A stretch of DNA of 64,000 bases, taken from the IMG/VR virus record IMGVR_UViG_3300029789_000001; one strand, written 5' to 3'. Position 1 is the stretch's first letter; the number at the start of each line of letters is the position of its first letter. The notes beneath the pieces were generated by a model. That model worked only from the letters and a program-made list of their open reading frames with translations. It ran no database searches and had not been told where the DNA came from. The translations under genes were made by a program, and so were the position numbers. The DNA is from a virus. Below are positions 2,074-32,375 of this stretch, piece after piece.

Positions 2074-2546
2074 TCTTTTAATTCATTATTTTCAGTATCT
2101 AACACAAATGGTTTACAACAATCTAGCATCGCATATTTATCTGTGATTACAGGTTCAGTTCTTCCTCCCCAAGAGTGCCCAAATATTTGATAATAACCTT
2201 TATATGGAGTTTGCAGTTGAAAATCTTCTAAATCATTCCAGACACAAGAGCCATATTTATTATATCCTCCTCTAGAATAAGGGATATGATCAAGAGCACT
2301 AAGATTAGTTATATCTATACTATCTAAGTCTTTTAATTCTAGATTATTATAATCTAACCAGTCTTTAGTAATACCTGCATGGGAGAATAAGTATTTATGA
2401 GGCTCTTTAAGAGTTAAATCTTCATATATGTAATATAATTGAGGATTTAAACTACTAATTAGCTCCTTTACTTCTTTTTGTTGCCAGTAATCGAATCTGC
2501 ATTTACCATTTCCATTGGAATAATCTAACACAATTATGTCATCCAT
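2055..2546 (-). CDS. metallophosphoesterase fragment similar to the C-terminal half of lambda-type Ser/Thr phosphatase. The N-terminal catalytic motifs are missing.
   Basis: GNGKCRFDYW, KYLFSHAGI, VWND and YQIFGHSWGG line up with the lambda PPase motifs GGGWFFNLDY, KYVICHADYP, IWNRE and FIFGHTP. No GDxHG / GDxxDRG / GNHE motifs are seen upstream. Confidence 0.45.
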   Translation of the reverse strand: MDDIIVLDYSNGNGKCRFDYWQQKEVKELISSLNPQLYYIYEDLTLKEPHKYLFSHAGITKDWLDYNNLELKDLDSIDITNLSALDHIPYSRGGYNKYGSCVWNDLEDFQLQTPYKGYYQIFGHSWGGRTEPVITDKYAMLDCCKPFVLDTENNELKEWKLNS

Positions 2547-2722
2547 TATTTTTGTTTTCGAAGCGCATTACTAGTACTAAATAGTTAATGGCTTCTAGCT
2601 CATTATCAGATAAAGATATTAATTTACCATTAATATCAATATCATATCCATCTACATTAGCCCATCTTGTAAGAGTTATATAGTCGGAATCTTTACCTCC
2701 ATATGTGTATTTTTTAAGATTG

Positions 2723-3118
2723 TCAGTAATCTGACTTACTTTCGTCACTTCCATGATTTAACTTATTAAAACCATAAATAATTAATTCTTTAAAATCTTT
2801 TTCTTCTTGTTCTGTTAAATCTAAAGGTCTTTCATCTATCCACATAAACTCATAAACTCCTTCATGTTTATTATACTCAAAACTTGCTATAGCATAACAA
2901 GTTTCAGAATTTTTAAAGCAGCTTTTATGTATTTTATGCCAGGAAAAGTTTGGGTCTCTGTACCAATCATTATCTATTTTTATAAAATCAGACTCATGAC
3001 CATAATAACAATTAGGCATATATCTATTTATATGATAGGCTTTAATTTCAGGAGGATTTTTTAAAAGATAGGTAGCGACCTTAAATTCTAAATTATTTAT
3101 TCGCTTAGTCTCTATCAT
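2723..3118 (-). CDS. hypothetical protein
   Basis: ORF track, 131 aa. Confidence 0.35.
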   Translation of the reverse strand: MIETKRINNLEFKVATYLLKNPPEIKAYHINRYMPNCYYGHESDFIKIDNDWYRDPNFSWHKIHKSCFKNSETCYAIASFEYNKHEGVYEFMWIDERPLDLTEQEEKDFKELIIYGFNKLNHGSDESKSDY

Positions 3119-3293
3119 CTTCTATATTAATTTTACCTTCTTTAATCATAAATTCTATTTCATCTTCTCTGTAACCAAGAACATCACATAAATAAACTTC
3201 TACATCATTAATATCATCTGGAACTGTTACTAAGTCAACACTTCCTACACCGTAATTTAAAATTGCACACTCCATAAAACTAAAAAAGGAGGC

Positions 3294-3794
3294 TTATTCA
3301 GCCTCCTTCCAAAATATATCAGTACACCATATCATTATATGGTCATTTCTATCTATCTTATAAAAATTTTGATTAGTATGTGGATTATTTAATGGTCCGA
3401 ATTGTTTCATATAAGGACCAAGTTTAATATAATCAAAATTATCAATATCTATAACACTATCAGCTAGTAATTGTTTACCACTATACCATCCAATATGTAA
3501 TTCGGGATAATTTTCTCTAACCCATTTAGCTAATTTATTTATTTCTTTTGGATCAGAATCTCCTCCCATAAATCCTACTAATGTAATTCCTTTATTAGAT
3601 TCAATTAATTCTTGGAGTCGTTCCAATGATAGTACTTCTCCAATATCTTTTGACAAATAAGGTGAGTGGCAACCATCACAGAAACAAGGGCAACCACTGA
3701 TGTTAATACATAGAGAAACTTCATTAGGAAATTCTGCAAAAGTAACAGCTGTATCAACATATTTAAGCATAGAACTCTTTAATTTTATTCTCAA
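3294..3794 (-). CDS. nrdG: anaerobic ribonucleotide reductase activating protein (radical SAM)
   Basis: The motif ISGCPCFCDGCHSP matches the NrdG-type C-x3-C-x2-C cluster. It lies immediately downstream of nrdD and a thioredoxin gene. Confidence 0.8.
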   Translation of the reverse strand: MRIKLKSSMLKYVDTAVTFAEFPNEVSLCINISGCPCFCDGCHSPYLSKDIGEVLSLERLQELIESNKGITLVGFMGGDSDPKEINKLAKWVRENYPELHIGWYSGKQLLADSVIDIDNFDYIKLGPYMKQFGPLNNPHTNQNFYKIDRNDHIMIWCTDIFWKEAE

Positions 3795-4026
3795 GCATAT
3801 CAGCAGTTAAAACTCCAGAAGTTCTTCCTACCTCTATATTATCTTTTATAAATACAAGAGTTGGAAGATTTCTAATATTATATTTAAGAGTAGTTTCTTC
3901 CTCTGTCTCTATATCTACTGTAGTTAAAGTAATATCAGTATGATTTTCTAATACTCTTTTTAAAATAGGTGCTAAAACTTTACATTGTCCACACCACTCT
4001 GCTTCAAATTTTAATATTCTTTTCAT
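3763..4026 (-). CDS. thioredoxin-like protein
   Basis: WCGQC active-site motif, 87 aa, thioredoxin fold length. Confidence 0.75.
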   Translation of the reverse strand: MKRILKFEAEWCGQCKVLAPILKRVLENHTDITLTTVDIETEEETTLKYNIRNLPTLVFIKDNIEVGRTSGVLTADMLENKIKEFYA

Positions 4027-4514
4027 TGTGCTAATTCTATATTAATTTCTAATTCATTCTTTCTACTTCTAGTACTACCTTCTAGTTGTCTAGCAGCACT
4101 CCAGTTAGAAATCTTTGTAAGATAGCCGATAATGCGATCCCATAGACTTACATGAGTACTACCACATTTAGGACATTTACTAAACGGTTGTTTTGCTATA
4201 AAATGACACTCTTCACATTCACAATTAGGAATATTAAAAGTAGCATATTTACAACCTACTTTAGCCATAAATTTAAGTAAATACTCATATTGTTTCTGAC
4301 TCAAATGTTCAGATAAATTAAGATGACAAGCAGAACCCCCATCCAATTCATCAGCAGCGAATTCAGAACTATGAAGTATAATTTTATCAAGTATACTTAT
4401 ATGTGTATCATTAGGTTTAAATATATAACTAGCATACAGATTAGTATCTGTAGGAATCCAATAGCCATCAGCTTTATCTCTATTATAAAGTTTTACTGAA
4501 GCGCTTTCTGCCAT
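4023..4514 (-). CDS. nrdD: NrdD C-terminal segment (glycine-radical domain plus zinc ribbon). It is either exon 2 of an intron-split nrdD or a separately translated split-gene fragment.
   Basis: Motifs DGGSACHLNLSE, CECEECHF...CPKCGS and the glycine-radical motif RIIGYL. GAAGGAG sits 9 nt upstream of its ATG, which is a rare SD-like site in this window. Confidence 0.85.
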   Translation of the reverse strand: MAESASVKLYNRDKADGYWIPTDTNLYASYIFKPNDTHISILDKIILHSSEFAADELDGGSACHLNLSEHLSQKQYEYLLKFMAKVGCKYATFNIPNCECEECHFIAKQPFSKCPKCGSTHVSLWDRIIGYLTKISNWSAARQLEGSTRSRKNELEINIELAQ

Positions 4515-4518
4515 TCTG

Positions 4519-5475
4519 TTACGCTCCTTCTATAGAAGGAATTTCTAATATTTTATTTAATTCCTCTATTGGCGAAGGATGATTAATAATATAATATAAA
4601 TCTTTGTTAGGACCATATTCACCAAATAATTCTTGTTCTTTTTTTATTCTAGCTAATACAGCTTCAGCATAAGTAAAATAATTTCCAAGATGTATACTTT
4701 TATAATTATACATTATTCTAGCCGTCCATTTTTTATTTACTTTAAGCCAGTTTACTCCTTTAATTTTTTGATTTAATTTTGTTCCTCTGTTATTATAAGA
4801 ATTTTCTTTTTGAGTACAAACTCGAAGATTTGAAAGCCTATTATCTAAAGAATCCCCATTGATATGGTCTACTACTTCATCAATATTATATTTTTTATCG
4901 TGAAGATGCATTATATATCTATGTACAAAGTATTTTTTACCAGAACCTTCCTCATTTTCTATTCCTGAAAATGCTGCATATTCTTTAATACCACTTTTTC
5001 TTATATAGATTTTATGTTTTTTAATGTCAGGTAAAAATTCTAAATCAACTTTGGTGCTAGCTTTATAATTACCATTTTTATCAAAACATTTTATTTCTAC
5101 ATAATCTTCATGAATAACATATTCATTAGCGTCGTATATAGTTCTATCTCTAATAGCCCCATGTCTAGTTATTTGGATATAATGTTTACGACAATACGGG
5201 GTTCCCTCAAAAGAAGCCATTTTTAAATCTCCACAAATACTACATTTTTCTAAAGGCTTTTTATGTTTTCTTTTAGAAGTGTCGGTGATTTTACCATATT
5301 TATTTAATTGGTCATAGTGTTTTTCACAAACTATATAATCATTGAATCTTCTAAGTTTCCCTTCTTCTTTAGTACTTCCACATACTTCACAGGTACATTC
5401 ATCTGGTATTCTTTTTCTTACTCTTTTTTCTTTTACTAAATTTCTTACTTTTAAAATGTCTAATTTTTGTTCCAT
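4519..5475 (-). CDS. HNH homing endonuclease with an AP2 DNA-binding domain, inserted between the two nrdD segments
   Basis: HNH motif VDHINGDSLDNRLSNLRVCTQKENSYN. AP2-like motif GVNWLKVNKKWTARIMYNYKSIHLGNYFTYAEA. Cys4 zinc knuckles at the N-terminus. Confidence 0.85.
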   Translation of the reverse strand: MEQKLDILKVRNLVKEKRVRKRIPDECTCEVCGSTKEEGKLRRFNDYIVCEKHYDQLNKYGKITDTSKRKHKKPLEKCSICGDLKMASFEGTPYCRKHYIQITRHGAIRDRTIYDANEYVIHEDYVEIKCFDKNGNYKASTKVDLEFLPDIKKHKIYIRKSGIKEYAAFSGIENEEGSGKKYFVHRYIMHLHDKKYNIDEVVDHINGDSLDNRLSNLRVCTQKENSYNNRGTKLNQKIKGVNWLKVNKKWTARIMYNYKSIHLGNYFTYAEAVLARIKKEQELFGEYGPNKDLYYIINHPSPIEELNKILEIPSIEGA

Positions 5476-5733
5476 AAACTATAATTTTTATATTTACTGT
5501 TATAGAACAACTATAGACCCTCATCCTTGGGAATCAAAATTATTTTGTATATTATATTATTAACGGAGAAAATTCTTCGATTTTCTCTCTCTATGTTACC
5601 ATAGAGTTCGGACTATTGCATATTTTAAATAAATTTATTTAAAATTCTCTTTATTTAGTCTCTCAGGCTGCCCATAATTATAATAATTATTGCTTGCCCC
5701 TCGTTGTCCTTAATCTAAGGAGTTTCGAGTCAA

Positions 5734-8562
5734 TTAAAAGAGATTTATAGTGCCCACACGTCTAGGCACTTGTTCAGTATTAAATTGAGCTGTTTTAGTT
5801 TTATGTTTCTTATTCTGTTCTTTTATAGTACTGAATATCAATCTACAGAATGTCTTATAATAAATATTATTATTACATTCCATTCCTAAGTATTCAGCCG
5901 CCTGATTTAAACCATTAATTCCAATAGTTAAATATTGTTTATCAAGATTAATAAAACCAGCATCATAAGCAGCATATAAATGATGATCTTTGCACCAATG
6001 CATTAAGTCGTTATAAGCATACTGATATAAATAAACTCTTTCAAGAATATTTTCTATATATTTCTTAATTCCTTCTTGGAAGTCTTTATGTGTAATCCAA
6101 TCTACTGGGAAACAACATCTATTGGTGTTAACATCAATATGGTCTTTATAATCAGACCAAGTATGCTGCCAATCCTGAATAATTCTATTTAAATCAAGAG
6201 TGATAACATTCTTACTACCAGTCATTATACCTATTTGACCATTAGTAGTATTAAATGTATTTTCTTGTACCGCATTCTGTAAACGACAATTATGAGTAAT
6301 TAATCCACTTGGTAATGTAAAATATGGTTCAGAAGTATTTTTACATTCTATACAATATACTCTATCATTGTAATCATATGGTTCGATAGATTTTATTTTA
6401 AAGTATATTCCATTATTATATTTTATCCAACTATGTTCCTTGTCTTTATTAGCTCTATGATTTGCATCTTCATACCATCTTACACAATATAATGGGTAAT
6501 TTCTTTTATAATGTTCCTCGCGTATTATAACTTCTTCATCTGTTCTATTTGATATATTAATAATGCTTTGCATTCCTAAAGAAGTTATTAAGGCTTCCAT
6601 ATTTTCTGCTAATTCAGGAGAAGTCGTGTAGCATCTGTTAGAATTTCCCCCATCAGTATCATACCATCCTTGTAGTATACCTTCTCTAAATTTTACAGAT
6701 TGAAGAAGACAATTCATGTTTAATTTCTTATTATAAGCATAAGTTCCTCTATACCAATTAGTCCATTTTTGAATAAAAGCAACTAAATTTTTATTAGATA
6801 CTCTTAATGGATAAACATTATTTACTACTTCTTTTAAAACCACGTTAGGTTCATATCCCATTTGTTTTAATGCGAGATTCCAATAAAATTTAGAACGTTT
6901 ATATTTTTGTTCATTTTGGGATAAATTAATATCATAGATAACTCCATTTATTTCAGAACTAAAAGAGCCATCACCTAAAAATGATCCAATTACATAACCT
7001 TGGGCGTAAGTTAAATGTTCATTATTATCTGGAATAGCACTCAACTTAGAAGTATTGAATAATAAGTAATCATTAATAGTTAACTGTTCTGTTGGTTTTT
7101 CTCCTTGTAAAGTTACATTTATATGATTATCAGTCATAATAAACTCTTTATTATTATAAGTGGTAACTTTATACATAGGACGATTAGGTAAATCTATAAC
7201 TTTGCCAGCTACCCAAGAGCCATTGTGAAATACTTTAAAATTCTCTTTCATATTTTTATATGGAAGATTTTTAAATTCTTCAAAGGTAGTTAGATGTACT
7301 CCAGAAGTGCTAGATTTCCATAAAAACTTAGTATCTTTAGAAAAGCAACATGAACTTAAACTATCTACACTACGAGACAGATAAGTAAAGAAAGAATTTC
7401 CTTGAGCATATTCACTGCATATAAAATGGAAAGTATCTAAATCTTTAAAATTACCTTCCTTATCTGTTAAGCAAGCATAACTACATACAGGAAATGTTAA
7501 AATACATTTTAATCTTTCTTGATTTAACCAATGTAAATAACGTCTTTGTAACCAATTAGTAGAATTCCATTCTGGCTTTGTTCCATCTGGAAATACAAAT
7601 TCTCCAAACATACCTTCAAAGAAATATTTATCGAAGAATGAAAAATTTGTAAATGGGGACTGCATTCCTCTAGCTCCTGCTATTTGATTAATGGAATAAG
7701 TTACCTGTTGGAAATATTGATCAATTTGACTGCCAATAGTTTTCTGTTTTATACAATAATCTGTAGTTATTTTTACACTTGGTTTGAGATAATAATTATT
7801 TCCCCATTCTTTTCTACAGAAATAATCCATATACATCAGAAACTCAGGAGTAGCTACTGCTCCTTTAATTTCAGAGGCTAATGCAAAGTTTAGATTTACA
7901 TAAATACCACAAAATGAATCAAGGTTCTTTGGAACAGCTGATTTACCTCCTAATTTCTCTAATCCAAACAACAAGAAAGGATACATAGAAGCTGCCATAC
8001 AATATGGTTCTCCTACTTGAGAAGATGAGTCATGAGGATATAAAATAGTTTTAAAGTCATTCCTCATAACTTTTATATTAAAGTTAGGGTCTCTCTTCTT
8101 TACAAAACTTTCCCACCATTCTGTATTAGTAAGTTTATTATCGACTTTATGTATTTCAGCGTTTAATACTCCAATACCTTTAGTTCCTACATTACTATTA
8201 TCATCAATAGTAGCATTAGCAGTATTATCAGACTTTACAAAATTATGAATAAATTTAATATCCCTAGTAGTATGATTTCTAATATCTTCACGTTCTTTAC
8301 GATATAGAATATATTTTTTAGCCACATCGTGATATCCTAAATCCATTAAGAGTTCTTCAATTTGGTCTTGAATATCCTCAATAGATTGATCTTCAGTCTC
8401 TACTACAGAATTAGTTATCTCAGTAACTGCTCTGTAAATATCTTCGTCCATTGTTTTACTAGAATTTTGGGTAATTCCAAAAGCCTTTAGTACAGCATCT
8501 CTAATTTTGTTTCTGTTAAACTCTTCTTTAATTCCGTCTCTCTTTATTACCATAAATAACAT
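5734..8562 (-). CDS. nrdD: anaerobic ribonucleoside-triphosphate reductase, N-terminal and main part, carrying an in-frame LAGLIDADG intein
   Basis: ATP-cone at the N-terminus (VIKRDGIKEEFNRNKIRDAV). NrdD core motifs TGSKNVITLDLNRI and TIGINGLNQAAEYLG. It ends at ...QVPRRVGTINLF before the expected glycine-radical domain. Confidence 0.85.
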   Translation of the reverse strand: MLFMVIKRDGIKEEFNRNKIRDAVLKAFGITQNSSKTMDEDIYRAVTEITNSVVETEDQSIEDIQDQIEELLMDLGYHDVAKKYILYRKEREDIRNHTTRDIKFIHNFVKSDNTANATIDDNSNVGTKGIGVLNAEIHKVDNKLTNTEWWESFVKKRDPNFNIKVMRNDFKTILYPHDSSSQVGEPYCMAASMYPFLLFGLEKLGGKSAVPKNLDSFCGIYVNLNFALASEIKGAVATPEFLMYMDYFCRKEWGNNYYLKPSVKITTDYCIKQKTIGSQIDQYFQQVTYSINQIAGARGMQSPFTNFSFFDKYFFEGMFGEFVFPDGTKPEWNSTNWLQRRYLHWLNQERLKCILTFPVCSYACLTDKEGNFKDLDTFHFICSEYAQGNSFFTYLSRSVDSLSSCCFSKDTKFLWKSSTSGVHLTTFEEFKNLPYKNMKENFKVFHNGSWVAGKVIDLPNRPMYKVTTYNNKEFIMTDNHINVTLQGEKPTEQLTINDYLLFNTSKLSAIPDNNEHLTYAQGYVIGSFLGDGSFSSEINGVIYDINLSQNEQKYKRSKFYWNLALKQMGYEPNVVLKEVVNNVYPLRVSNKNLVAFIQKWTNWYRGTYAYNKKLNMNCLLQSVKFREGILQGWYDTDGGNSNRCYTTSPELAENMEALITSLGMQSIINISNRTDEEVIIREEHYKRNYPLYCVRWYEDANHRANKDKEHSWIKYNNGIYFKIKSIEPYDYNDRVYCIECKNTSEPYFTLPSGLITHNCRLQNAVQENTFNTTNGQIGIMTGSKNVITLDLNRIIQDWQHTWSDYKDHIDVNTNRCCFPVDWITHKDFQEGIKKYIENILERVYLYQYAYNDLMHWCKDHHLYAAYDAGFINLDKQYLTIGINGLNQAAEYLGMECNNNIYYKTFCRLIFSTIKEQNKKHKTKTAQFNTEQVPRRVGTINLF
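6289..8347 (-). mobile_element. intein (353 aa) with a LAGLIDADG homing-endonuclease domain, inside nrdD
   Basis: Block A: CFSKDTKFLW follows SLSSC. Two LAGLIDADG motifs: VIGSFLGDGSF and LQGWYDTDGGNS. C-terminal ITHN followed by the extein Cys. Excision regenerates SSC-CRLQ. Confidence 0.8.
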
Positions 8563-8659
8563 TTATAAATTAACATTTTAAATCATCTACGAAATAAGCA
8601 CTATAATACTAGTACTGAACTAATAATATAGTGCTTATATAGTTATTTCAAAATATTAT

Positions 8660-9454
8660 TTACAAAGTTAAAATGCTGTTTACTAGTAAAGTTTTCTCAA
8701 CCTGATTCATAATATCTTTTTTCATAGAATCAGTTATAATTTGAGTGAATGCATTATATACAGTAAACATATTTGCGTTATCATCTGATACAAGATATGG
8801 ACTATCTTTTTTATCAAATAATAATTTATAAGCATCAATAGGAGTTGATGTAGCTAATTTCACTTTACCAAAACCATTATCAACAGATTCAGACATACAG
8901 TTACGAATCCATCTACCCAAATGTTCATTTACAAAACTTTTATTGGTATAGTCAAAATCTGTATCTGCAAAGCGTCTGAGAGTAACTCCTATCTCTGTAG
9001 TTTGCTCTACAAGTCTTGTAATTGGTTTAAAGTTAATCGGAGTCTCTGGTTCTATCTCATTAACTACTAAACTGTCTGGATTAAACACACAAAGGTTAGT
9101 GCAAGCAGAATTTACGGCACCTGAGTACATTTTTACAACAGCTTTTCTAGTGTCTAGACCATATACCATACCAATTACCTGCTGATGATTAGCATATTGA
9201 TATTCATTTGGTAATACTGCTTCTAACCATACTCTATTAAAAGTTAAATCAGCAGTATCTATATCACCATTTTTATTATAAGTGATTTGATCAGGTAATT
9301 TTACATGTACTCTAATATCAGAAGTTAATTTTTGAACTCTTTCCAGAAAAGGCTCAATATATCCTCTAGTAGGAAGATAATCTTTACCTTTAATACTAGT
9401 AGCTTTTCCTTTTAATACTTCTTCTAAAGTAAATTCAGTTGGCATTCTCTCCAT
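8660..9454 (-). CDS. hypothetical protein
   Basis: ORF track, 264 aa. Confidence 0.4.
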   Translation of the reverse strand: MERMPTEFTLEEVLKGKATSIKGKDYLPTRGYIEPFLERVQKLTSDIRVHVKLPDQITYNKNGDIDTADLTFNRVWLEAVLPNEYQYANHQQVIGMVYGLDTRKAVVKMYSGAVNSACTNLCVFNPDSLVVNEIEPETPINFKPITRLVEQTTEIGVTLRRFADTDFDYTNKSFVNEHLGRWIRNCMSESVDNGFGKVKLATSTPIDAYKLLFDKKDSPYLVSDDNANMFTVYNAFTQIITDSMKKDIMNQVEKTLLVNSILTL

Positions 9455-9671
9455 TGTATGTGAAAAACATTATGTTATCAATAATTTCTTTATCTAATAA
9501 TTTTTGTACTAAATTATGCGGAGTATCTTCGGCATAGTTAACTTTGTTTACATCTACACTAGTAATATATATCCACTTACTCCCGTTGTATAATATTTGC
9601 CCACAGGGATATGAATTTTTATAGCAGATAAGTAGTGTCTTGTTATCTTTAGTAATTTCATTAGTTACCAT
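9435..9671 (-). CDS. hypothetical protein
   Basis: ORF track, 78 aa. Confidence 0.3.
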   Translation of the reverse strand: MVTNEITKDNKTLLICYKNSYPCGQILYNGSKWIYITSVDVNKVNYAEDTPHNLVQKLLDKEIIDNIMFFTYNGENAN

Positions 9672-10285
9672 TTTAATGTAGCGAGGAATTCTTCATCAGA
9701 TACTTCTTCAAAATCTCCATCTCCGTAAATAACATCTGAGATATTATATTCTACTATTTTAAACTCTGGCTTGCCATGGCTATGCCAATATTCTGTAACA
9801 TGTTTTGCATTACAATTTGGACTAGGACCTAATGCAATACTACAAGAAAATTTATTAGTTTCATAGCAATGTCCTTTATAAAAGTTTTGACATTTCTTTA
9901 TATAGTCAATAATAGTATCAACTTCTCCTGGGCAAGTAATAACTTCTTTTAGTGGGAGAACTTTTTTATAATCTCTATAAGCAGGTTTATCAGGAGTAGC
10001 TTCTTTATAATCATCTTCTATACCTCCTTCTAAGAGTTGCTTAATTAATATTTCAAAAGTATCATCCCAAGTATCCTTAATACCATATGCATACATATAA
10101 GTATCTCTTATATAATTAAAATTATCTTGAGATAAATAATGTCTAGCATATAATGGATCTTCTTCACTATCTTTAAATCCATTCTTAATAAGCTCATCCA
10201 AATCTATAGAAGGTTGAGCCCATTTATACATTTCTACAAAACACTTATGTAAAGCTTCCTGTAAAATGTCTTCTCTGCTAATCAT
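9665..10285 (-). CDS. hypothetical protein
   Basis: ORF track, 206 aa. Confidence 0.4.
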   Translation of the reverse strand: MISREDILQEALHKCFVEMYKWAQPSIDLDELIKNGFKDSEEDPLYARHYLSQDNFNYIRDTYMYAYGIKDTWDDTFEILIKQLLEGGIEDDYKEATPDKPAYRDYKKVLPLKEVITCPGEVDTIIDYIKKCQNFYKGHCYETNKFSCSIALGPSPNCNAKHVTEYWHSHGKPEFKIVEYNISDVIYGDGDFEEVSDEEFLATLKW

Positions 10286-10562
10286 CGTTGTTAGTATAAA
10301 ATTCTAATAATCTAAAATTATCTGCTATATGTTTAGTATCTATTAAGTCATTGACTAATTCTAATAATGTATCTTTGCATGTATTAAATTGACTATTATC
10401 TATATTGTCACAAAAATACCACAGATCGGTATCTGAACAATATGAAATGTTTCCTACAGCCATACCTTCTTTATAAGCGATAATTATACCTTTATAATTA
10501 TTAGTAATAGCTGCTAAATCTATAGTAGTATCACTACTTTTAGGAATAGTAATATATTTCAT
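10278..10562 (-). CDS. hypothetical protein, paralog A of a tandem pair
   Basis: 94 aa. Shares an ordered motif pattern with the adjacent 88-aa ORF: SD..ID, GII.AYK, VG.I.Y, W.YF.D, LL.L and AD.F.L. Confidence 0.45.
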   Translation of the reverse strand: MKYITIPKSSDTTIDLAAITNNYKGIIIAYKEGMAVGNISYCSDTDLWYFCDNIDNSQFNTCKDTLLELVNDLIDTKHIADNFRLLEFYTNNDD

Positions 10563-10828
10563 TATTTAAAATCAATTAATTTAAAACTATCGGCGTAATT
10601 ATTTGACATTATAGCTTTTAGTAATGCTAGCAAATTTTCATTACATTTAAAACTACAATCTATAGTAATATCATCGAAATATTCCCATGTAATATCTTCA
10701 TCGTTATAGCCAATGAATCCAACTGGTTTATTACATTTGTATGCTAAAATAATACCCGAAGTATTCTCATTTATATCAGAAATATCTATAAATTTATCGG
10801 ATATTTCTGGAAGTCTTATGTCTCTCAT
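10562..10828 (-). CDS. hypothetical protein, paralog B of a tandem pair
   Basis: 88 aa. Tandem duplicate of 10278..10562. Confidence 0.45.
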   Translation of the reverse strand: MRDIRLPEISDKFIDISDINENTSGIILAYKCNKPVGFIGYNDEDITWEYFDDITIDCSFKCNENLLALLKAIMSNNYADSFKLIDFK

Positions 10829-11142
10829 TAATTATTTCCTTTAATAGTTCCCATCAAAATATCTTTATCTTTTACAATAGTATAATTAATACTCCATTTA
10901 GTATGTCCAAAATTAGCTGTAATATAATTACTACTACCATACATACTACCTACTGATATATAATCAAACTGCTTACCAGTAGTATAAGCATAATTATGTA
11001 AATCACCTTTTACTACATAAATATGAGGACTACATATACCTTTTTCTGCTATATAATTAGCAAAGAATAATTCAGTCTGAGGATTTAAAGTAAGAGGAAA
11101 TTGTCTAGTCTGAGAATTATTATCTTTCAGTTTTGTTATCAT
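10828..11142 (-). CDS. hypothetical protein; possible downstream exon (motif V region) of the SbcD-like nuclease
   Basis: TLNPQTELFFANYIAEKGICSPHIYVVKGDLHN resembles the SbcD TLDAFPAQNF...YIALGHIH region. Weak. Confidence 0.35.
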   Translation of the reverse strand: MITKLKDNNSQTRQFPLTLNPQTELFFANYIAEKGICSPHIYVVKGDLHNYAYTTGKQFDYISVGSMYGSSNYITANFGHTKWSINYTIVKDKDILMGTIKGNN

Positions 11143-11279
11143 ACAGCTTTTTATCTGTATTTCTATAGTTTCTTATTTACTATAGCTCGGCGTACATATT
11201 CACCTCCACCTTTACGTGCTGAGGGCAAACCACTCTTGGAACTATTTTATTCTGATTTCTCAGGTTCAAGTTCTACGCT

Positions 11280-12377
11280 CTACGATGCTACAGACTCTTT
11301 AGTTTCTGTAGTTATCTCGGTATTAGCATCACAGCCTTCACCGATATTGGTTTGTTTTAACATATTTGATTTCTCAAATATACGGCAAAAATAAATAAAT
11401 TTTTCATATTTTCTATTTAAATAAATTGAGCAATTATCATATAATTTATGTAATACATACATAGCTTTTCTACTAGAAGCCTGTATATACATAGTAATTT
11501 CTTTTTTATTATTATGATTATGAAATAAAGTTTCTTCTATATTTAAATAACTCATAATAACCTTTAAAAACTCTTTAGTTCCAAGTATTTGATATACTGG
11601 AATAGTATGTTCTTTATTAGCATAGCTAATACACCCATCACCATCAAAATAACCTCTAATAAAATGTCTTATTAAGTCCCTAGATTTAAAGATACTTTCA
11701 TCAGGAAATTTTAATGTTAAACTCTTTCTAGGAGTACATCCTAAAGAATTTAGTTGTTTCCATAAGATTTCACTGGATAAACATACTCTACATCTAGTAT
11801 GTCCATATTTATCAGCTTTAGTAACATGTAATTCTTTATTGTACCCAATAGCTTTTGCAAATTTTTCCATATGTTCTTTATCATCCCCTTTAGTACATAG
11901 TTCAAAGTTCCAATCTATCCTTTCTTTGGATGTATCTAGAGGGGAACTATAAATATAACCATCAGCAAATATAAAACCTAACCAATAAGCTTTTTCTTCA
12001 GTATCTATATTGTCAAAAAAATGTTCATTGTAAGATTTTTCTTTCTTTCCCTTTTTATTAGGATTATAAAGATTTAAAGTTACTAAATGAGTTTTTAAAG
12101 TTTGTGCTCCAATATTATATTTTATAGCGGAAGCACGTAATCCTGTATCAGAATTAATATAATCTTTTATAGCTAAATTTAAATTCTTAATAGTTATACC
12201 CGTTAAATATACACTATAAGAATAGTTATTATCTTTTAATAATTGCTCTAAATAATCTCGGCTAACTTTATTAGCTTTACAAAAAGCAGTTAGCTTTAAT
12301 TCCGAATTTAAAAAATTATTTAATATTTCTATGAGAGTATTATAACTCTTCCACGGAAATATAATAATTAAAATATG
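11280..12377 (-). CDS. LAGLIDADG homing endonuclease (two-motif, ~360 aa). The open frame has no ATG at its 5' end.
   Basis: Manual translation of the frame upstream of the tracked ORF is continuous from 12377. Motifs AYWLGFIFADGYIY and IRGYFDGDGCISY. The first in-frame ATG is at 11870, in the middle of the protein. It ends at TAG, followed 10 codons later by TAA. Confidence 0.75.
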   Translation of the reverse strand, partial: HILIIIFPWKSYNTLIEILNNFLNSELKLTAFCKANKVSRDYLEQLLKDNNYSYSVYLTGITIKNLNLAIKDYINSDTGLRASAIKYNIGAQTLKTHLVTLNLYNPNKKGKKEKSYNEHFFDNIDTEEKAYWLGFIFADGYIYSSPLDTSKERIDWNFELCTKGDDKEHMEKFAKAIGYNKELHVTKADKYGHTRCRVCLSSEILWKQLNSLGCTPRKSLTLKFPDESIFKSRDLIRHFIRGYFDGDGCISYANKEHTIPVYQILGTKEFLKVIMSYLNIEETLFHNHNNKKEITMYIQASSRKAMYVLHKLYDNCSIYLNRKYEKFIYFCRIFEKSNMLKQTNIGEGCDANTEITTETKESVAS

Positions 12378-12387
12378 TTAAAATTTA

Positions 12388-13626
12388 TTACAAAACTCTA
12401 CCGTGAGCATATAGGAATTGATGATCTCCAATGATGAAATTATCAATAGGATAGTTACTAATATAACTCTTAACATTATATTTAGTTAAATATGCAGCTA
12501 AAAGTTTCTGATTTAACCATTCAAAATCACCACCATGATTAGATTCTCCTATAGAGAGATAATTAAAATCTTTACTTTTTACTTTTACTGTAAGAGTAGC
12601 AAAGAACTCCATCATACACTCTATAAATGCTTCACTAATTTCTTTATTATCAAGAATCTCAGGAAGCTCATGACCCCCTCTAGTAGTTTCTTTATTGAAC
12701 CCATCAATAGAATCTCCAAGATTAACTACATATACAGAATGATATTCTTGTTCCACAAAAGATTCCACAATTCTAGATAATCTAGATTTAATTTCTGGAA
12801 CATCATAAGAAGGTAACTGTACAAAACTACTATATTTAGCATTATAAGCTCCGATATGTAAATCAGATAACCATATAATTAAATCAGGATATTTTGCTTC
12901 TTTATTATTAATATTTACTGGAAGCTCTTTATAATCCTTTACTGTATTTTTAATAGTATCTTCTATAAGTTCCTTATTTAAAGACTTAGAGGTTTCCTTA
13001 GTTAACTTAGTAACTAAAGCTCTTAAATCCTTTACTTCATCTTTCTCTATTCTTTTTAAGAAATCATTCTCTTTTTCTCTAAGATGCATTTCTTTTAATT
13101 CATCCTCAGTATATTCTTCATACATATGAGGAGCAAATGGAGAGGATGCTTTAGTAATATTAAAAGCTCGTAAAATTCTTTTAAAGTCAATAAGAGAATA
13201 GTCTGGGAAATATCTGCTGACAATCTGCTGGGTTAAACCAGAACCGTAATAAGTATACATTCTATATACACTATTCATTTCGTTTCTAGTAAAGACTCCT
13301 GTGATTGCGGGCTTATTTCTTCTGAAAATCTCAAACTTATATCCAGTAATTTTACCAGTATCCTCGTCTCTTATTTCCCAAGTATTAGAAGCATCATCTG
13401 TATCTTTCTTTACTTCTTTTTTCTTAGTATTCTTTAGTTTATCATATAATTCCAATATCTTCTTATCATCTTCATCTTTATTTTCTTTCTTTTTAAGATT
13501 TCTCATTGTCATATATACAGTATTTATATTTTTTCCTGATATAGTACACTGAGCTTTTAAAGAACGATTATTATTAATTGCATCATTAAAGAACTTAATA
13601 TAAGAAGATTTTGTTGCTTGTTTCAT
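12388..13626 (-). CDS. calcineurin-like metallophosphoesterase of the SbcD/Mre11 nuclease family, with a 240-aa N-terminal extension. It ends right after motif IV.
   Basis: Motif I IIWLSDLHIG, motif II VVNLGDSIDG, motif III SIGESNHG, motif IV IIGDHQ. Double TAA TAA stop. Motif V is absent from this ORF. Confidence 0.65.
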   Translation of the reverse strand: MKQATKSSYIKFFNDAINNNRSLKAQCTISGKNINTVYMTMRNLKKKENKDEDDKKILELYDKLKNTKKKEVKKDTDDASNTWEIRDEDTGKITGYKFEIFRRNKPAITGVFTRNEMNSVYRMYTYYGSGLTQQIVSRYFPDYSLIDFKRILRAFNITKASSPFAPHMYEEYTEDELKEMHLREKENDFLKRIEKDEVKDLRALVTKLTKETSKSLNKELIEDTIKNTVKDYKELPVNINNKEAKYPDLIIWLSDLHIGAYNAKYSSFVQLPSYDVPEIKSRLSRIVESFVEQEYHSVYVVNLGDSIDGFNKETTRGGHELPEILDNKEISEAFIECMMEFFATLTVKVKSKDFNYLSIGESNHGGDFEWLNQKLLAAYLTKYNVKSYISNYPIDNFIIGDHQFLYAHGRVL

Positions 13627-13732
13627 ACTTTTTTAAAAATTAGATAGCTGTTACGCCTTTATAAATAAAAGTATCTAGTAAAATAAAAGGTATCTAAATT
13701 AAAAAAGGCAGATACTCTCACGAGCACCTGCC

Positions 13733-14722
13733 TTAAATTATATTAAATATGTTTATATCTGTAGAATTATAAGGAATTTCATAATGATTATTTACAAATG
13801 CTTTATATCTTAAGTATTTTCTGGTTAGATATATTGAACAATTATCATATAAATAATGTAAGAACTCAATACTTTCTGATTTTTTAAGTTTTAAATTGTA
13901 ATAATCATGTGCAGTATGGCACAACTAAATTAAGCCATTATTTTGATTACTATATTCTGCTATTTTAGTCACCAACTGTAAAGTTCCAAGTACTGAACAT
14001 CTAGGAACTATTCCATATTTATATTTATTATAACTAATACATCCATCACCATCAAAATAACCTCTAATGAAATGTCTTATTAAATCTTTGGATTTAAATA
14101 TATTCTCATTAGGAAATTTAAGAGTTAAGGATTTATTAGGAGTACATCCATATTTATTTAAAGTCTGCCACAAATGTTTATTAGAGGCTGCCCAAACACA
14201 ACTATTAGCATTTTGTCTTATATTGACTGTTCCAGACATAAAAGTATTAAATTTATGTAAATGTTCAATATCAGAATTTTTTAAAGTTATATTTAAAGTG
14301 TATGTCTAAATTTTTTTAGTAACAGTCTTAATATTACCATCAGCATAAATGAACCCTAACCAATACGCTTTTTCTTCAGTATCAATAGAATCAAATATAG
14401 TTTCTGATATCCTAGATTCAATCTGCTTATTTTTAATATTGTAACCTAAATTTTTTAACTTTTCAGATAATGTAGTTCTACTAGTATGATAAATATCTGC
14501 TAAATATCTAAGACTTTTTCCTTCCTTCCAAGGTTTTATTATATCTTTATCAAAATCTTTTATTAATGATTTCTTAGGATTATGCTAAGTTATATTCCAA
14601 GTTCTTAGATTTTCTAAAATAGAATTTTTAGAGACTTTATATTTTTCACTAAGTTCAGTTATTGAAATTCCATCAATATAATCCTATATTAGATTTTGTT
14701 TAATATTATTTAAATCTTTCAT
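13733..14722 (-). pseudogene. second LAGLIDADG homing-endonuclease gene, paralogous to 11280..12377. One continuous frame interrupted only by 4 TAG codons, so either a pseudogene or an amber-read-through gene.
   Basis: MKDLNNIKQNLI(TAG)DYIDGISITE...WNIT(TAG)HNPKK...AYWLGFIYADGNIKTVTKKI(TAG)TYTL...NGLI(TAG)LCHTAHDYY...NIFNII(TAA). The IRHFIRGYFDGDGCISY stretch is near-identical to copy 1. Confidence 0.7.
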
Positions 14723-14758
14723 AAACATAAATAGGGAGGATTACTCCTCCCTAAAATA

Positions 14759-23320: not shown

Positions 23321-24478
23321 TCAGAATCTAAAATCAAATTTAGGAACTATCTTTTCACCTGGGGTAAAGTCTTTACCTTGTAACACTTTATCCAATTCTG
23401 ATTCGTCTATAGTTATAAAAGAATCTCCCTTATGAGAATCATAAAACCACTTGGTCTCTTGAGTCCTATTTAATACTATATTGAATATCTCTGCTGTCTT
23501 ACCTTTTTCAAAGCGGATTGATCTTCCTCTCCGTTGACAAGCTCTAGTAGTTGAACTATCTAATCCAAATATAATAGCTACAGAAAGACCTTTTACATCA
23601 AGTCCTTCATCAGCTTTTTTTACTGTAGATAATAAAGTTATCTTTCCAGAGTTAAAATCTTCAATAGCTGTAGCACTTCTTTTTTTAGAAGTTCTACTAG
23701 AATATACAGTAGCATTAGGAATTTTTTCTGCCATTTTAATATTATTAGCAAAAGTTATTATTTTTTTATCCTTTCTAGCTTCTATAATTTTCTTTACTAT
23801 TTCAATTTTCTTTGGATGATTATTTATGAAAGCTTTTTTCTCATGCATAGTAGACCAAAATCTGATAGCATGATAATTTATACTTTGTAATACTTCAGAC
23901 TTTTTATTAGGATCACTACACATAGAATCTCTTAGGAGTAGTTTATTTCGCCAACCCATAGGACCGGCTAATTTATTAACTAACTCCCAAGAGAATCCGA
24001 AGAATTCAAAATGAGAAATGAATTCTTTATTTATTTTTTCATATTCTTCTAAATCATCAACATTTACTAAGACTAGATATTCTTTATATGGACTAACCCA
24101 ACCATTTGCAAGACAAGTATTAATATCAATAGTATCAATTACTGGACAGTATTTTGCTAATATTTTATCTCTACCATCAAGACGCTCAAAAGTAGCTGTA
24201 AGACCTAAGATAAATTGGTATTTTACTACTTCAAATAATCTTACAAAAGTCTCAGCTGCATATCTATGCGCTTCATCCAGTACTAAAAGATCATATTTGG
24301 CAGGATGTTTTATTACAGTGTTTATTATTTGTACGTCACAACTTAATCCTAGCCCATTAGAATCTATATGACCATACCATTGTTTTTGTAAAGTTTCTGT
24401 TGGTACAATTATTAGTACTCGGTATTGTGGAAAGTGTTTTAACACTGTTTTAATACAGTTTAGTCCTATTCTGGATTT
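23321..24478 (-). CDS. SF2 (DEAH-type) helicase, proposed exon 2. The tracked ORF starts at GTG 24445, and the frame is open up to 24478.
   Basis: Motif Ia RVLIIVPTETL, motif II LVLDEAH, motif III GLTAT, motif VI QRRGRSIR. Walker A is missing from this ORF. Confidence 0.7.
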   Translation of the reverse strand, partial: KSRIGLNCIKTVLKHFPQYRVLIIVPTETLQKQWYGHIDSNGLGLSCDVQIINTVIKHPAKYDLLVLDEAHRYAAETFVRLFEVVKYQFILGLTATFERLDGRDKILAKYCPVIDTIDINTCLANGWVSPYKEYLVLVNVDDLEEYEKINKEFISHFEFFGFSWELVNKLAGPMGWRNKLLLRDSMCSDPNKKSEVLQSINYHAIRFWSTMHEKKAFINNHPKKIEIVKKIIEARKDKKIITFANNIKMAEKIPNATVYSSRTSKKRSATAIEDFNSGKITLLSTVKKADEGLDVKGLSVAIIFGLDSSTTRACQRRGRSIRFEKGKTAEIFNIVLNRTQETKWFYDSHKGDSFITIDESELDKVLQGKDFTPGEKIVPKFDFRF

Positions 24479-24800
24479 CGATTTTGTTATCGTATAGCTT
24501 TTTATCTATACTTCTTACTATTACTAGTAAGTCCCGCATAAATTTTTACCCACTTATTTCAGTTGGGGTATCGAACACTCGTGGAGAAATTATATTCTAA
24601 TAAAAATAGTCTAGTTAATAATTAGACTATTTATTAGGTTCATTCTCTATGCTGTACGGTGTAGAAGATTCTTTAATTTCTTCTATTACCTCGGTATTAC
24701 CCTCTATAGGGCTTTCACCGATTTTGCTCGATAATAATTTCGAAGATTCCTCTATCGAAACGGCATCGTAATTAACAGGTATATGACCCGCTTTTACAGT
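24479..24800 (-). other. putative 322-nt group I intron in the SF2 helicase gene, with no internal ORF
   Basis: Splicing GGU|...ucG| joins exon 1 ...ASTGFG to exon 2 KSRIGLNCIKTVLKHFPQYRVLIIVPT. This restores Walker A TGFGKS at the normal spacing from motif Ia. The 5' exon ends in U and the intron ends in G. Contains an AGACUA element and a 10-bp perfect hairpin. Confidence 0.5.
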
Positions 24801-24932
24801 ACCAAAGCCAGTAGACGCAACTATTGTCCCTACACAACGATTTTTTATCCATTTTCTACGACACTCTTCTTGTCGTTCATCTCTAGTGATTTTATGAAAT
24901 AGTTCTCCTTCAATCAGAGAGTTTGTAGCCAT
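24801..24932 (-). CDS. SF2 helicase, proposed exon 1. The tracked ORF 24627..24932 reads through into the intron.
   Basis: LRDERQEE (Q-motif-like) and ...IVASTGFG, ending at the first half of Walker A. Confidence 0.55.
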
Positions 24933-30415: not shown

Positions 30416-30897
30416 AATTTATAAATATAAAGAGTTATTGTTAAATCATTAGCAAAAAGTTCTTGGAGCATAGGATAAACTACTCCGTCCCAATCTCCTC
30501 CTGCTAATCCACATCCTAATTTATAAGGAATGCCTATCTCTGTAATCTCGTTATCTTTACAAAGGTCTTTTAAATCTAATAAAGCTTTTTTAAGAGCATC
30601 ATAATCAGTATGTCTATTTTCATAGGGAGCTATTGATTCAGTAAAAGAATATTCACCAAATAAATTAGCTACGAGATTAATAGGTTCATCTCCTGTTATA
30701 CATACTTGACATTTCCCTAATAATTCTTTAGAATATTTAAAATATTTACAATAATTGGCATATCGTGTATATACGCTATTCCATTTATTTTTAATAGCCT
30801 TAGCTATACCTGCCCCCATTACTCCTAAACAATTAGTTTGATGGGCTATAAGAGGTAAATTTGACTGAAGTAAATCTCCATTAACAATTTTTATCAT
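30403..30897 (-). CDS. macrodomain protein (ADP-ribose binding or processing)
   Basis: IAHQTNCLGVMGAGIAKAI matches the macro-domain VNAAN...GGGV..AI ADP-ribose pocket. A second glycine motif is LGCGLAGG. Confidence 0.7.
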   Translation of the reverse strand: MIKIVNGDLLQSNLPLIAHQTNCLGVMGAGIAKAIKNKWNSVYTRYANYCKYFKYSKELLGKCQVCITGDEPINLVANLFGEYSFTESIAPYENRHTDYDALKKALLDLKDLCKDNEITEIGIPYKLGCGLAGGDWDGVVYPMLQELFANDLTITLYIYKLCNN

Positions 30898-31644
30898 ACT
30901 AATGTTGAATTTACACGTTCACGAATTTCAGAAAGAGAATATTCTCTTACTAATTCTCCATCTACAAAGACTGTTTTAAGACAACCTTGCAGTTCTGCAT
31001 CCTTGGTCTGCTGGTCATAAGCGACATACTTACCATCCTCTTTTTCAACTCTTATAAGACCTTTGAGAGAGTTCTTTGTTCCATCATCAGTCTTTGGGTG
31101 CTTATAGATTTCTATAAGTTTACCATTAATGGTGCATGCGGTCGCTTTAACTGCGAAACCCAAAGAATCTCTACTCTTAAACTGATAAGTATAAGATCCA
31201 ATACCAAGAACAAGATTACAAGCTGCCATATGAGCGTTCTCTAATCGAGCATAGATATCACGCTGACGCTCTAGAGTGATAGAATCTCCATAGAGCAACC
31301 CAACCTTGGTGCTTGGATAACGATAATCGTTCACAGTAGTATTCCATCCAAAGATTTTACCTAGCATATAATATGCTCCATAATACTGACCTTCAGATAC
31401 TTCTACATAATGACTCTCATCATCATCCATAAATGGATTGAAATCACAGTAGTACTTACCCTCTTTCATAGCAGTGTGGTAATGAGGATTTGTACGAAGA
31501 CCACAAATAATATCCACTGGGTCACCACTATCAGGACGAATTACTACTCGACCATCACGCTTCATAATGTCTTTTTTCAGACGAGGGAGAATACGTTCTA
31601 CCACTCTCCAAAAATCATAAGTATCACTAACTATAGATACAATT
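30894..31644 (-). CDS. nicotinamide phosphoribosyltransferase-family (NAMPT/NadV, possibly Namat) protein, proposed exon 2. The tracked ORF extends to 31736 inside the intron.
   Basis: IVSIVSDTYD, VVIRPDSGDP, LLYGDSITLER and VLGIGSYTYQ match the NAMPT C-terminal half. Confidence 0.7.
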
Positions 31645-32375
31645 CCAATAGGATATAATTCATTTATCAATCTTTTAATTGACAATAATTCTCCAATAAG
31701 TTTTTTGTCCTCTTCAGACGCTTTTTGAATTTTCATATTTATACGCTTTTTTCAAATTATCAATAGCCCATAAAGGCTGTAAATTTTTATAACAGAAACA
31801 CTCTTTTTGCTATATAGGATCAGATAAATCAAAAGAGGAACATGGTCTTATATGATCTAAATGCCATTCACCATAATTATCCCAGGACATTCCTTCAGTA
31901 AATTTGTTTGCAATATATTCTTTTAAAAATTCTATAGAACATCCGATTAATTCCATAGTATGTGCAGATTTAGATTCTCCTTTTAGAGCATGTGCCACTC
32001 TACGTCTGAGGTTATTACGAATTTTAAACTTTAAAGAATTTCTTTCCCATATTCTTTTTTGCTCCCGTAATTTATCTTTATTTTCTTGTCTATAAATTTT
32101 GTCATAAGCAGCTTTTTCTTCTTTATGAGCATCTGCATAAATTTTCTTTTGTGCTAATATATGCTCTTTATTTTCTTCATAATATTTATGTCTAGCTACT
32201 TTAACTTTATCTTTATTAGCCTCTCTATATGCTTTATTTTTAGCATTTCTACATTCTTTACAATGAGTATCTAACCCATCTTTATTTCTTTTGCACTTAG
32301 GAAATTCTGAAATAGGTTTTTCCTAACCACAATTAGAACAAATTTTTGTCTCCATTTTTATCAATATATCCAATT
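31645..32375 (-). other. putative 731-nt group I intron in the NAMPT-like gene, carrying an HNH endonuclease ORF
   Basis: Splicing at ..aaaUU|a...auugG|a gives mature ...DDFGKLIVSIVSDTYD, the same spacing as human NAMPT FSSVPVSVVSDSYD. U at the exon end and G at the intron end. The junction is ambiguous within a 6-nt repeat ATTGGA. Confidence 0.5.
31810..32322 (-). CDS. HNH homing endonuclease, intron-encoded, with no ATG at the start of the open frame
   Basis: Frame open from 32322: EKPISEFPKCKRNKDGLDTHCKECRNAK...(K-rich repeats)...GEWHLDHIRPCSSFDLSDPI. HNH motif plus CxxC...HCxxC zinc site. The track shows only the last 62 aa, from an internal Met. Confidence 0.7.
   Translation of the reverse strand, partial: EKPISEFPKCKRNKDGLDTHCKECRNAKNKAYREANKDKVKVARHKYYEENKEHILAQKKIYADAHKEEKAAYDKIYRQENKDKLREQKRIWERNSLKFKIRNNLRRRVAHALKGESKSAHTMELIGCSIEFLKEYIANKFTEGMSWDNYGEWHLDHIRPCSSFDLSDPI

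Follow-up and report, generated by a model that had tools for sequence, protein, structure and literature searches.

Why does the phosphoesterase gene of an uncultured gut phage end before its last catalytic motif, with LAGLIDADG endonuclease genes on both sides of it? This question is raised by a stretch of 64,000 nucleotides (nt) of IMG/VR virus record IMGVR_UViG_3300029789_000001 (hereafter the window, meaning the whole stretch that was analysed). On its minus strand, a 412-amino-acid (aa) open reading frame (ORF) at 13626..12388 ends in two stop codons, a LAGLIDADG ORF follows, and a 104-aa ORF (11142..10828) starts 137 nt past the stop of the LAGLIDADG ORF. An earlier sequence-only reading of this DNA had proposed either an intron at roughly 11140..12393 or endonuclease-driven fragmentation of the gene. 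Our analysis makes it very probable that a mobile group I intron with an endonuclease cassette splits the phosphoesterase gene, and that the upstream LAGLIDADG gene is a separate element whose in-frame TAG codons are most likely sense codons.

Boundaries and allelic states of the insert

The nearest public record to the window is MT835492.1 (L001), an unannotated human-gut phage scaffold that is 96–99% identical and aligns with window positions 13735..12401 and 11113..8000. Alleles at the phosphoesterase locus were compared with this record and with scaffold L232 (both intron-less and 96–99% identical to the window), with the IMG/VR contigs L017 and L026 (93–98%), with L147 and L148 (96–98%) and with L003 (81%). 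L150 and L017 are parts of one contig.

In L001 the gene is a single continuous 508-aa ORF reading ...FLYVHGKDSRNQTRQF..., and the intron-less allele of L232 reads CATGGT|AAAGATAATAATTCTCAG, which is the end of exon 1 followed directly by the start of exon 2 of the window. Protein P0009 has the same exon junction, GGT|AAAGATAATAATTCTCAG. Because the junction in L232 and P0009 matches that of the window to the base, the insert was placed at 12399..11128 on the minus strand (1,272 nt), and the intron proposed earlier thus stands with refined boundaries. The insert starts with AGAGUUUUG... after the exon-terminal U and ends in ...AACAAAACUG, with the terminal G (omega-G) at 11128. Joining window position 12400 (the T of CAC GGT) to 11127 (AAA GAT) gives ...FLYAHG|KDNNSQTRQF..., in frame and over 508 codons. 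Sequence similarity between the 3' part of the insert and MT835539.1 halts exactly at 11128; no other database similarity was found there.

Comparison of the relatives revealed further states of the same site. An ORF-less insert of about 272 nt occurs at the same codon in L017 and L026 (CACGGT|AGAGTTTTGCCGTATATTTGAG...GATAACAAAACTG|AAAGAT) and is equal to the insert of the window minus precisely 12390..11391. The intron with its ORF was found in L147, L148 and L003, and phages that are merely 61–81% identical (L003–L006) hold the same intron and endonuclease gene at the same site.

Substitutions between L001 and the window cluster immediately 3' of the insertion site, within 14 nt (window 11127..11107 against L001 7399..7420). 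The residues following the site are KDSRNQ in L001, KDNNSQ in the window and KNNTSQ in protein P0001; the flanks are otherwise 96–99% identical. The cluster could be a co-conversion tract or a cleavage-resistant variant of the target.

Ribozyme core and RNA family

Analysis of the 3' part of the insert identified a ribozyme core at 11128..11381 (minus strand). Searches of IMG/VR with a 29-nt core motif (19 loci) and a second, two-part motif (at least 120 loci) revealed the family to which this core (263 nt) belongs at a minimum of 120 loci and in many different genes. For the covariation analysis 43 sequences below 93% identity were aligned with MAFFT (alignment A1), and the group I topology was tested including the long-range P3 helix and the P3/P7 pseudoknot. 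In total, 90.7% of the cells were paired and both sides had changed in 43 of the 57 pairs, a result that none of 500 shuffles equalled; when the partners were slid as a control, pairing fell to 33–43%.

The model built on this covariation places P2 at 11381..11362, P3 at 11354..11349 with 11231..11226, P4–P5 at 11344..11317, P6/P6a at 11316..11284, P7 at 11278..11274 with 11194..11190, P7.1/7.2 at 11273..11239, P8 at 11225..11201, P9 at 11185..11163 and P9.1 at 11159..11142, all on the minus strand. Pairing was highest in P3 (99%, with changes on both sides in five of the six pairs), P7.1 (99%), P9 (97%) and P6/P6a (96%). P2 and P8 were misaligned by MAFFT (68% and 60% paired), and the column counts for these two helices understate the pairing that is visible by eye. 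P7 had been fixed by the search pattern and was hence rechecked in 73 distinct sequences gathered through the endonuclease protein. Of these, 46 have G-C and 23 have A-U as their central P7 pair and none has a mismatch; P3 and P4 covary in this set too. The core lies directly downstream of the endonuclease gene in 74 of the 80 loci found through that protein.

Near-invariant in the family are P7 (5 base pairs (bp), G-C pairs among them), which would hold the guanosine-binding site, and the joiners J8/7 (6 nt, GAAUAU-like) and J4/5 (symmetric AA/AA). The core of the window fits the invariant positions of the family and, judged by eye from printed extracts, looks identical to that of L017 and L026. 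For the ORF-less RNA the folding z-score is -3.7, and P1, P2, P4–P6, P9 and P9.1 are present in the centroid. The hairpin between P7 and the 3' strand of P3 resembles the P7.1/P7.2 element of subgroup IA phage introns.

Reading of the sequence also identified the internal guide (11382..11392, minus strand), in which GCCGU (11386..11382) pairs with exon ACGGU as P1 and AUUUUU (11392..11387) pairs with exon 2 AAAGAU as P10. P1 is 5 bp long with a G.U pair at the splice site, and in the ORF-less allele it is a local hairpin that is seen in the centroid fold. Four other contexts show P1 helices of 4 bp, formed by CGGU or UGGU with GCCG. Another candidate guide, CCGUG at about 12352, close to the 5' end of the cassette, was rejected: it leaves a U-U at the splice site, and the ORF-less alleles show GCCGU at 11386..11382. 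Judged from its sequence, the insert is a group I intron, with an exon-terminal U, an omega-G and a covarying P3–P9 core with the P3/P7 pseudoknot.

An nhmmer search with the profile of alignment A1 detected another intron of this RNA family in the window (24800..24479, minus strand, 322 nt, E = 2.5e-39), which contains no ORF. It splits a superfamily 2 (SF2) helicase gene inside the Walker A motif (..ASTGFG|KSRIG..), with exons at 24932..24801 and 24478..23321. Its P7 (GCAUA/UAUGC) is compensatory to that of the phosphoesterase intron (GCGUA/UACGC). In MT835492.1 the helicase intron holds a LAGLIDADG gene of about 0.95 kilobases (kb) in its P1 loop, the reverse of the situation at the phosphoesterase locus.

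The phosphoesterase host gene

The 412-aa ORF ends ...FLYAHGRVL before TAA TAA, its 3' end on the minus strand being ...GDHQFLYAHGRVL-TAA-TAA. Exon 1 (12400..13626, minus strand) contributes 409 codons of this ORF and ends in CAC GGT, the His-Gly of motif IV; it is collinear at 98–99% with the phosphoesterase genes of L001, L026 and L232. Exon 2 (10828..11127, minus strand), delimited by the contiguous junction in L232 and P0009, contributes 99 codons and a stop (KDNNSQTRQF...VVKGDLHN...). Metallophosphoesterase motifs I–IV (SDLH, GDSID, ESNH, AHG) are in exon 1 and motif V (GDLH) is in exon 2, within the VVKGDLHN that the 104-aa ORF contains. The residues D255/H257, G304-D305-D308, N363-H364, H408-G409 and G450-D451-L452-H453 are invariant in 28 homologues, so the motif assignments of the sequence-only reading hold. 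That reading had also asked whether the 412-aa protein is complete. It is truncated, since nearly all of the 557 homologues retrieved are 497–546 aa long and full-length proteins have about 500–510 aa (typically about 505); the 104-aa ORF supplies the remainder. Both exons are intact, and the ratio of nonsynonymous to synonymous substitution rates (dN/dS) of the host gene is 0.10–0.14.

Searches with the host protein found no match in Pfam, where Metallophos was absent even at E ≤ 0.1, and PDB sequence and profile searches returned noise only. PHROGs matches were phrog_22398 (unknown function) and phrog_284 ('exonuclease', 3e-12), and the nearest matches in cultured phages are Cellulophaga phage genes annotated as 'calcineurin-like phosphoesterase'. 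As the Pfam and PDB searches were uninformative, a fold search was needed to place the protein. Its AlphaFold2 model (predicted local distance difference test score 75) matches GpdQ, Rv0805, PolD DP1, Vps29, Mre11 and LpxH (Foldseek E 4e-8 to 1e-5). The modelled alpha/beta sandwich fold, together with the five metal-binding motifs (DxH, GDxxD, GNH, H, GxH), places the protein in the calcineurin-like superfamily, and the host product is a calcineurin-like metallophosphoesterase of about 508 aa with an N-terminal extension of about 245 aa. The 'SbcD/Mre11' label given earlier holds at the level of the superfamily, and membership of SbcD/Mre11 itself is not specifically supported: phosphodiesterases lead the fold search, in which Mre11 chains rank no higher than 15 and then 40+.

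The intron-borne LAGLIDADG endonuclease

The 1 kb that the ORF-less alleles of L017 and L026 do not possess is a homing-endonuclease cassette in the P1 loop (11391..12390, minus strand, boundaries ±5 nt), flanked by a TTTTG repeat. Its LAGLIDADG ORF (11280..12332, minus strand) has 350 codons, the last 37 or so of which are read from the ribozyme itself, from the guide through P6, up to a UAG stop in J6/7 (TAG at 11282..11280). The two motifs are WLGFIFADGY and IRGYFDGDGC, and the protein matches LAGLIDADG_3 in Pfam (3e-07) and phrog_4645 in PHROGs (6e-49).

The frame is open from 12377 and contains no ATG, GTG or TTG until 11870, beyond the first motif. The absence of an ATG, noticed already from the sequence alone, goes back to a single G-to-A change: the start site at 12332..12330 is ATA in the window (CATAGAAATATT) and ATG in L147, L148 and L003 (CATGGAAATATT). 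With its start codon lost, the endonuclease of this genome is probably silent, or translated weakly at best. Otherwise the ORF is intact, and its dN/dS against L148 is 0.19.

Together these features suggest how the locus may work. The primary transcript would fold as a P1–P9.1 ribozyme, with the exon-terminal U paired to the G of the guide GCCGU and a G at the end of the intron. Two transesterifications would then join ...CAC GGU to AAA GAU..., giving the predicted ligated junction ...GCTCACGGT|AAAGATAATAAT... and restoring the frame ...FLYAHG|KDNNSQTRQF.... The intron is a compound element, made of a ribozyme of about 272 nt that occurs alone in sister phages and a 1-kb LAGLIDADG cassette in its P1 loop. 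The endonuclease of a sister genome would cut intron-less alleles, and repair would spread the intron; L232 and L001 are candidate cleavage targets for the intron copy. The change from ATG to ATA in the window would be an early step of decay in this homing cycle.

The upstream LAGLIDADG gene and TAG recoding

On the other side of the phosphoesterase gene an intergenic insertion (13736..14754, minus strand) holds a free-standing LAGLIDADG gene. Its ORF (14728..13733, minus strand) ends in TAA, has four in-frame TAG codons (14686..14684, 14587..14585, 14308..14306 and 13927..13925) and matches LAGLIDADG_1 and LAGLIDADG_3 in Pfam and phrog_4645 in PHROGs (1.5e-54). A hairpin at 14751..14734 (minus strand, GGGAGGAG-UAA-UCCUCCC) sequesters a GGAGG 12 nt before the ATG of this ORF.

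L149 and L150 have the insertion at the identical intergenic position, and L001, L026, L148 and L232 lack it. Whether it is present does not depend on the state of the intron: the L150/L017 contig has the upstream gene and the ORF-less intron, whereas L148 has the full intron and lacks the upstream gene. BLASTP aligned the two LAGLIDADG copies over 260 aa at 42% identity, and a single short stretch is nearly identical. The sequence-only reading had called the upstream copy a near-identical paralog and had left the choice between two sequential invasions and a duplication. The near-identity does not extend beyond the short stretch, and the independent presence of the two copies in near-identical phages, together with their low identity, supports two separate acquisitions, by which a duplication was rejected. 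The L001 intergenic sequence is a candidate cleavage target for the upstream copy.

The same reading had described the upstream copy as TAG-interrupted. This is literally true yet misleading, as the gene is probably not degenerate. All four stops in its 331 codons of 27%-G+C DNA are TAG, and neither TAA, TGA nor a frameshift occurs. All four are retained in L149 and L150, where further stops and frameshifts are absent, and dN/dS along the ORF is 0.09–0.12, like that of the host gene. An alignment of 78 endonuclease homologues, made to assign a residue at the four TAGs, gave columns that were too variable for this.

Codon usage in MT835492.1 revealed that the phage lineage recodes TAG in its late genes. 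On the late strand of this record, ORFs of at least 150 aa cover 6.7 kb under the standard code versus 58 kb with TAG as a sense codon. Single late ORFs carry 16–128 TAGs and CAG is depleted; one ORF of 3,402 codons has 128 TAG, 12 CAG and 50 CAA codons. These counts suggest that TAG is read as glutamine and that this ORF is possibly a crAss-like giant virion protein. The late block (L229–L231) lies at record positions 63721..119704 on the strand opposite to the early genes and contains 28 ORFs of at least 150 aa. The window has a G+C content of 27–35%, carries all its long ORFs on the minus strand and is early-type in gene content (nrdD, primase, DnaB-like helicase, exonuclease, nicotinamide phosphoribosyltransferase and a tRNA cluster).

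Results from these comparisons indicate that the upstream ORF is probably a functional recoded gene and not a pseudogene. Tentatively, we propose further that it encodes a functional endonuclease gated by the genetic code, whose protein would be made only after suppression of stop codons becomes active late in infection; the suppressor would perhaps be a tRNA with anticodon UUA ('Stop'). This tRNA (56442..56526, minus strand, 85 nt, long extra arm, Rfam tRNA 53 bits) is the sole suppressor-like tRNA in the window. The U at its first anticodon position may allow it to read UAA and UAG, yet TAA is the main stop codon. If the proposal is true, the gene would offer a clear example from nature of a selfish nuclease timed by the genetic code, within a family that switches between intron-borne and free-standing life styles.

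Weighing of alternative explanations

Several observations weigh against a spliced intron that is accompanied by a recoded upstream gene. Splicing is deduced from the sequence, and P1 is short, both here and in the other contexts read. Rfam model RF00028 (Intron_gpI) matched neither the window nor the ORF-less allele at the gathering threshold or at E ≤ 10; another intron of this gene family, in L007, reaches 44 bits with the model. We read the missing match as a sensitivity gap of the model and not as counter to the group I fold. An in-frame ATG at 11142, which opens the 104-aa ORF, lies 15 nt ahead of the 3' splice site within the 3' strand of P9.1, as it also does in L003; with this ATG and the 1-kb insertion in the P1 loop, room should be left for some unspliced expression. 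As for the TAG codons, recoding was seen in the late region of a 96–99% identical relative while the window holds early-type genes only, and none of the 12 tRNAs found by ARAGORN in the window is a CUA suppressor.

The ATG at 11142, the like arrangement in L003 and the missing Rfam match would also fit a gene that was fragmented without splicing, the other proposal of the sequence-only reading, in which polypeptides of 412 aa and 104 aa are translated separately and either cooperate or are non-functional. This is very improbable, since the insert has a covarying ribozyme core and the U/omega-G signature, an ORF-less insert interrupts the same codon, and an intron-less allele has exactly this junction. 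Moreover, the ATG is part of the P9.1 stem without being conserved in the intron family, and the break would separate catalytic motifs IV and V of one domain. An intron that is real and has lost splicing here, leaving the phosphoesterase as a pseudogene in this genome, is in keeping with the endonuclease start codon that is already lost and with a gene dispensable enough to tolerate several insertion states. It is quite improbable all the same, given the apparent identity of the core to that of L017 and L026 and its fit to the invariant positions of the family, the intact exons under purifying selection, and the same architecture in several independent assemblies. LAGLIDADG domains occur in inteins too, and rarely in group II introns, and the probability that the insert is one of these or a translational bypass element is negligible. 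An intein was rejected because the exon frame runs into TAA TAA three codons past the start of the insert and the endonuclease uses a different frame; a group II intron was rejected because the topology of the covarying helices is that of group I, and neither a reverse transcriptase gene nor a domain V-like hairpin was noticed; and 1,272 nt is far too long for a bypass element. An assembly chimera was also considered and rejected.

The upstream ORF may instead be a decaying pseudogene in which the TAGs are inactivating nonsense mutations. Four in-frame stops are what such decay would give, the other genes of the window read well in the standard code (10 of the 73 long ORFs end in TAG), and the CUA suppressor tRNA is missing from the window; it was not found in the relative's record either, which appears not to cover the tRNA cluster at 53–57 kb. 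Against decay stand the restriction of the stops to TAG, the conservation of the same four in L149 and L150 at a low dN/dS, and the massive use of TAG as sense in the late genes of the lineage. The same idea, of translation delayed until a suppressor is active, was put forward for a TGA-recoded intron endonuclease in the early region of Agate phages (bioRxiv 10.1101/2021.08.26.457843). The window resembles that case in having in-frame recoded stops in an endonuclease gene of the early region. It differs in that its recoded gene uses TAG and is free-standing and intergenic, unlike the TGA gene within the Agate intron, and in that the adjoining intron-borne copy is in the standard code. On balance a pseudogene is unlikely.

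Comparison with known systems

Mobile group I introns with homing endonucleases are classical in phage genes, and this locus belongs among them. Those of subgroup IA include the introns of T4 td, nrdB and nrdD, of the SPO1 DNA polymerase gene, of Twort orf142 and of Staphylococcus phage K. Like these, the intron of the window interrupts a conserved catalytic motif of a gene of DNA or nucleotide metabolism, follows an exon U and ends in an intron G, has a P3–P9 core with an extra hairpin (P7.1/7.2) between P7 and the 3' strand of P3, carries its endonuclease ORF in a peripheral loop and is present or absent among relatives. Unlike them, it encodes a LAGLIDADG endonuclease (theirs are GIY-YIG or HNH), with the ORF in the P1 loop reading through into P2–P6. 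Its core (P7 GCGUA/UACGC, conserved CCAAGAGUG and GAUAAAAAG loops) is too divergent for RF00028, and it resides in a TAG-recoding lineage of uncultured gut phages.

Free-standing homing endonucleases are known from T-even phages as the seg and mob genes, which move by 'intronless homing'. The upstream gene resembles them in lying between two genes, in varying in presence among near-identical genomes and in having sharp insertion boundaries. It differs in being a LAGLIDADG gene, whereas theirs are GIY-YIG or HNH, and in having relatives that are almost always intron-borne, as judged from the core downstream in 74 of 80 loci.

Dense loads of group I introns have been published for gut phages of Bacteroidota. 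The crAss-like (Delta/Zeta) and Jug phages have group I introns and LAGLIDADG genes annotated as 'intron-encoded endonuclease/maturase', which densely interrupt the core genes TerL, major capsid protein, PolB and nrdD and coexist with stop-codon recoding (PMC7886860; PMC12880540); splicing in Jug phages was confirmed by metatranscriptomes (PMC12880540). Introns were detected mainly through protein domains by Yutin et al. (PMC7886860) and with existing covariance models in the Jug study (PMC12880540). TAG recoding of late genes is described for crAss-like and other gut phages (PMC7886860; bioRxiv 10.1101/2021.08.26.457843). The phage of the window shares the habitat with these phages and probably has a host of a related phylum. 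Within the portions of the two intron reports considered here (PMC7886860; PMC12880540), the RNA family, the P1-loop cassette and the phosphoesterase target of the window are not described.

To this background the locus adds a well-defined RNA family missed by the standard model, a LAGLIDADG cassette in a P1 loop and an unusually full range of allelic states. Among genomes that share more than 96% identity, a near-complete series of the homing cycle is found: an empty site, the ribozyme only, the ribozyme with an intact endonuclease gene and the start-codon mutant. The adjoining TAG-recoded gene under purifying selection makes 'recoding as a timer' directly testable. A practical consequence concerns annotation: the ORFs of 412 aa and 104 aa belong to a single gene, and one or more further genes of the window are split by this RNA family. 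Since RF00028 misses the family, which has 120 or more loci in IMG/VR, many genomes of gut phages are likely to contain gene calls fragmented in this way, which a covariance model from alignment A1 would remedy.

Other split genes and mobile elements

In L007 (5090..5436) and in L008 the phosphoesterase family is split at another place, GESNH|GGDYEW in motif III, by a classical group I intron of about 350 nt. The L007 intron has a GAUAUAGUC element, and its Rfam Intron_gpI score of 44 bits compares with a gathering score of 50. Of the LAGLIDADG cassette described above, it retains the 5' leader and a C-terminal remnant (LYDNATIYGNRKFNKF), a finding which suggests that the cassette moves between unrelated introns.

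The TAG-recoded phage L002 (MT835539.1) has two introns of the RNA family at about 2400..4300, in a gene that by eye looks terminase-like. One contains an intact LAGLIDADG gene of 310 aa and the other a degraded ORF, apparently in the P5 loop; the terminase-like exons contain in-frame TAGs.

The nicotinamide phosphoribosyltransferase gene of the window is in two pieces, 33187..32333 and 31751..30894, which match positions 13–267 and 262–496 of phrog_448. The intervening 580 nt or so hold a 171-aa ORF (32322..31810) with no Pfam match, and Rfam found no RNA family in this region. The stretch 30990..33570 is missing from MT835492.1.

Directly downstream of nrdD (8562..5734) the window has an HNH endonuclease gene at 5478..4519 (Pfam HNH_3, phrog_99). 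The surrounding segment, about 4119..5767, has no megablast counterpart in MT835492.1, and for this reason the HNH gene is probably a further free-standing homing endonuclease.

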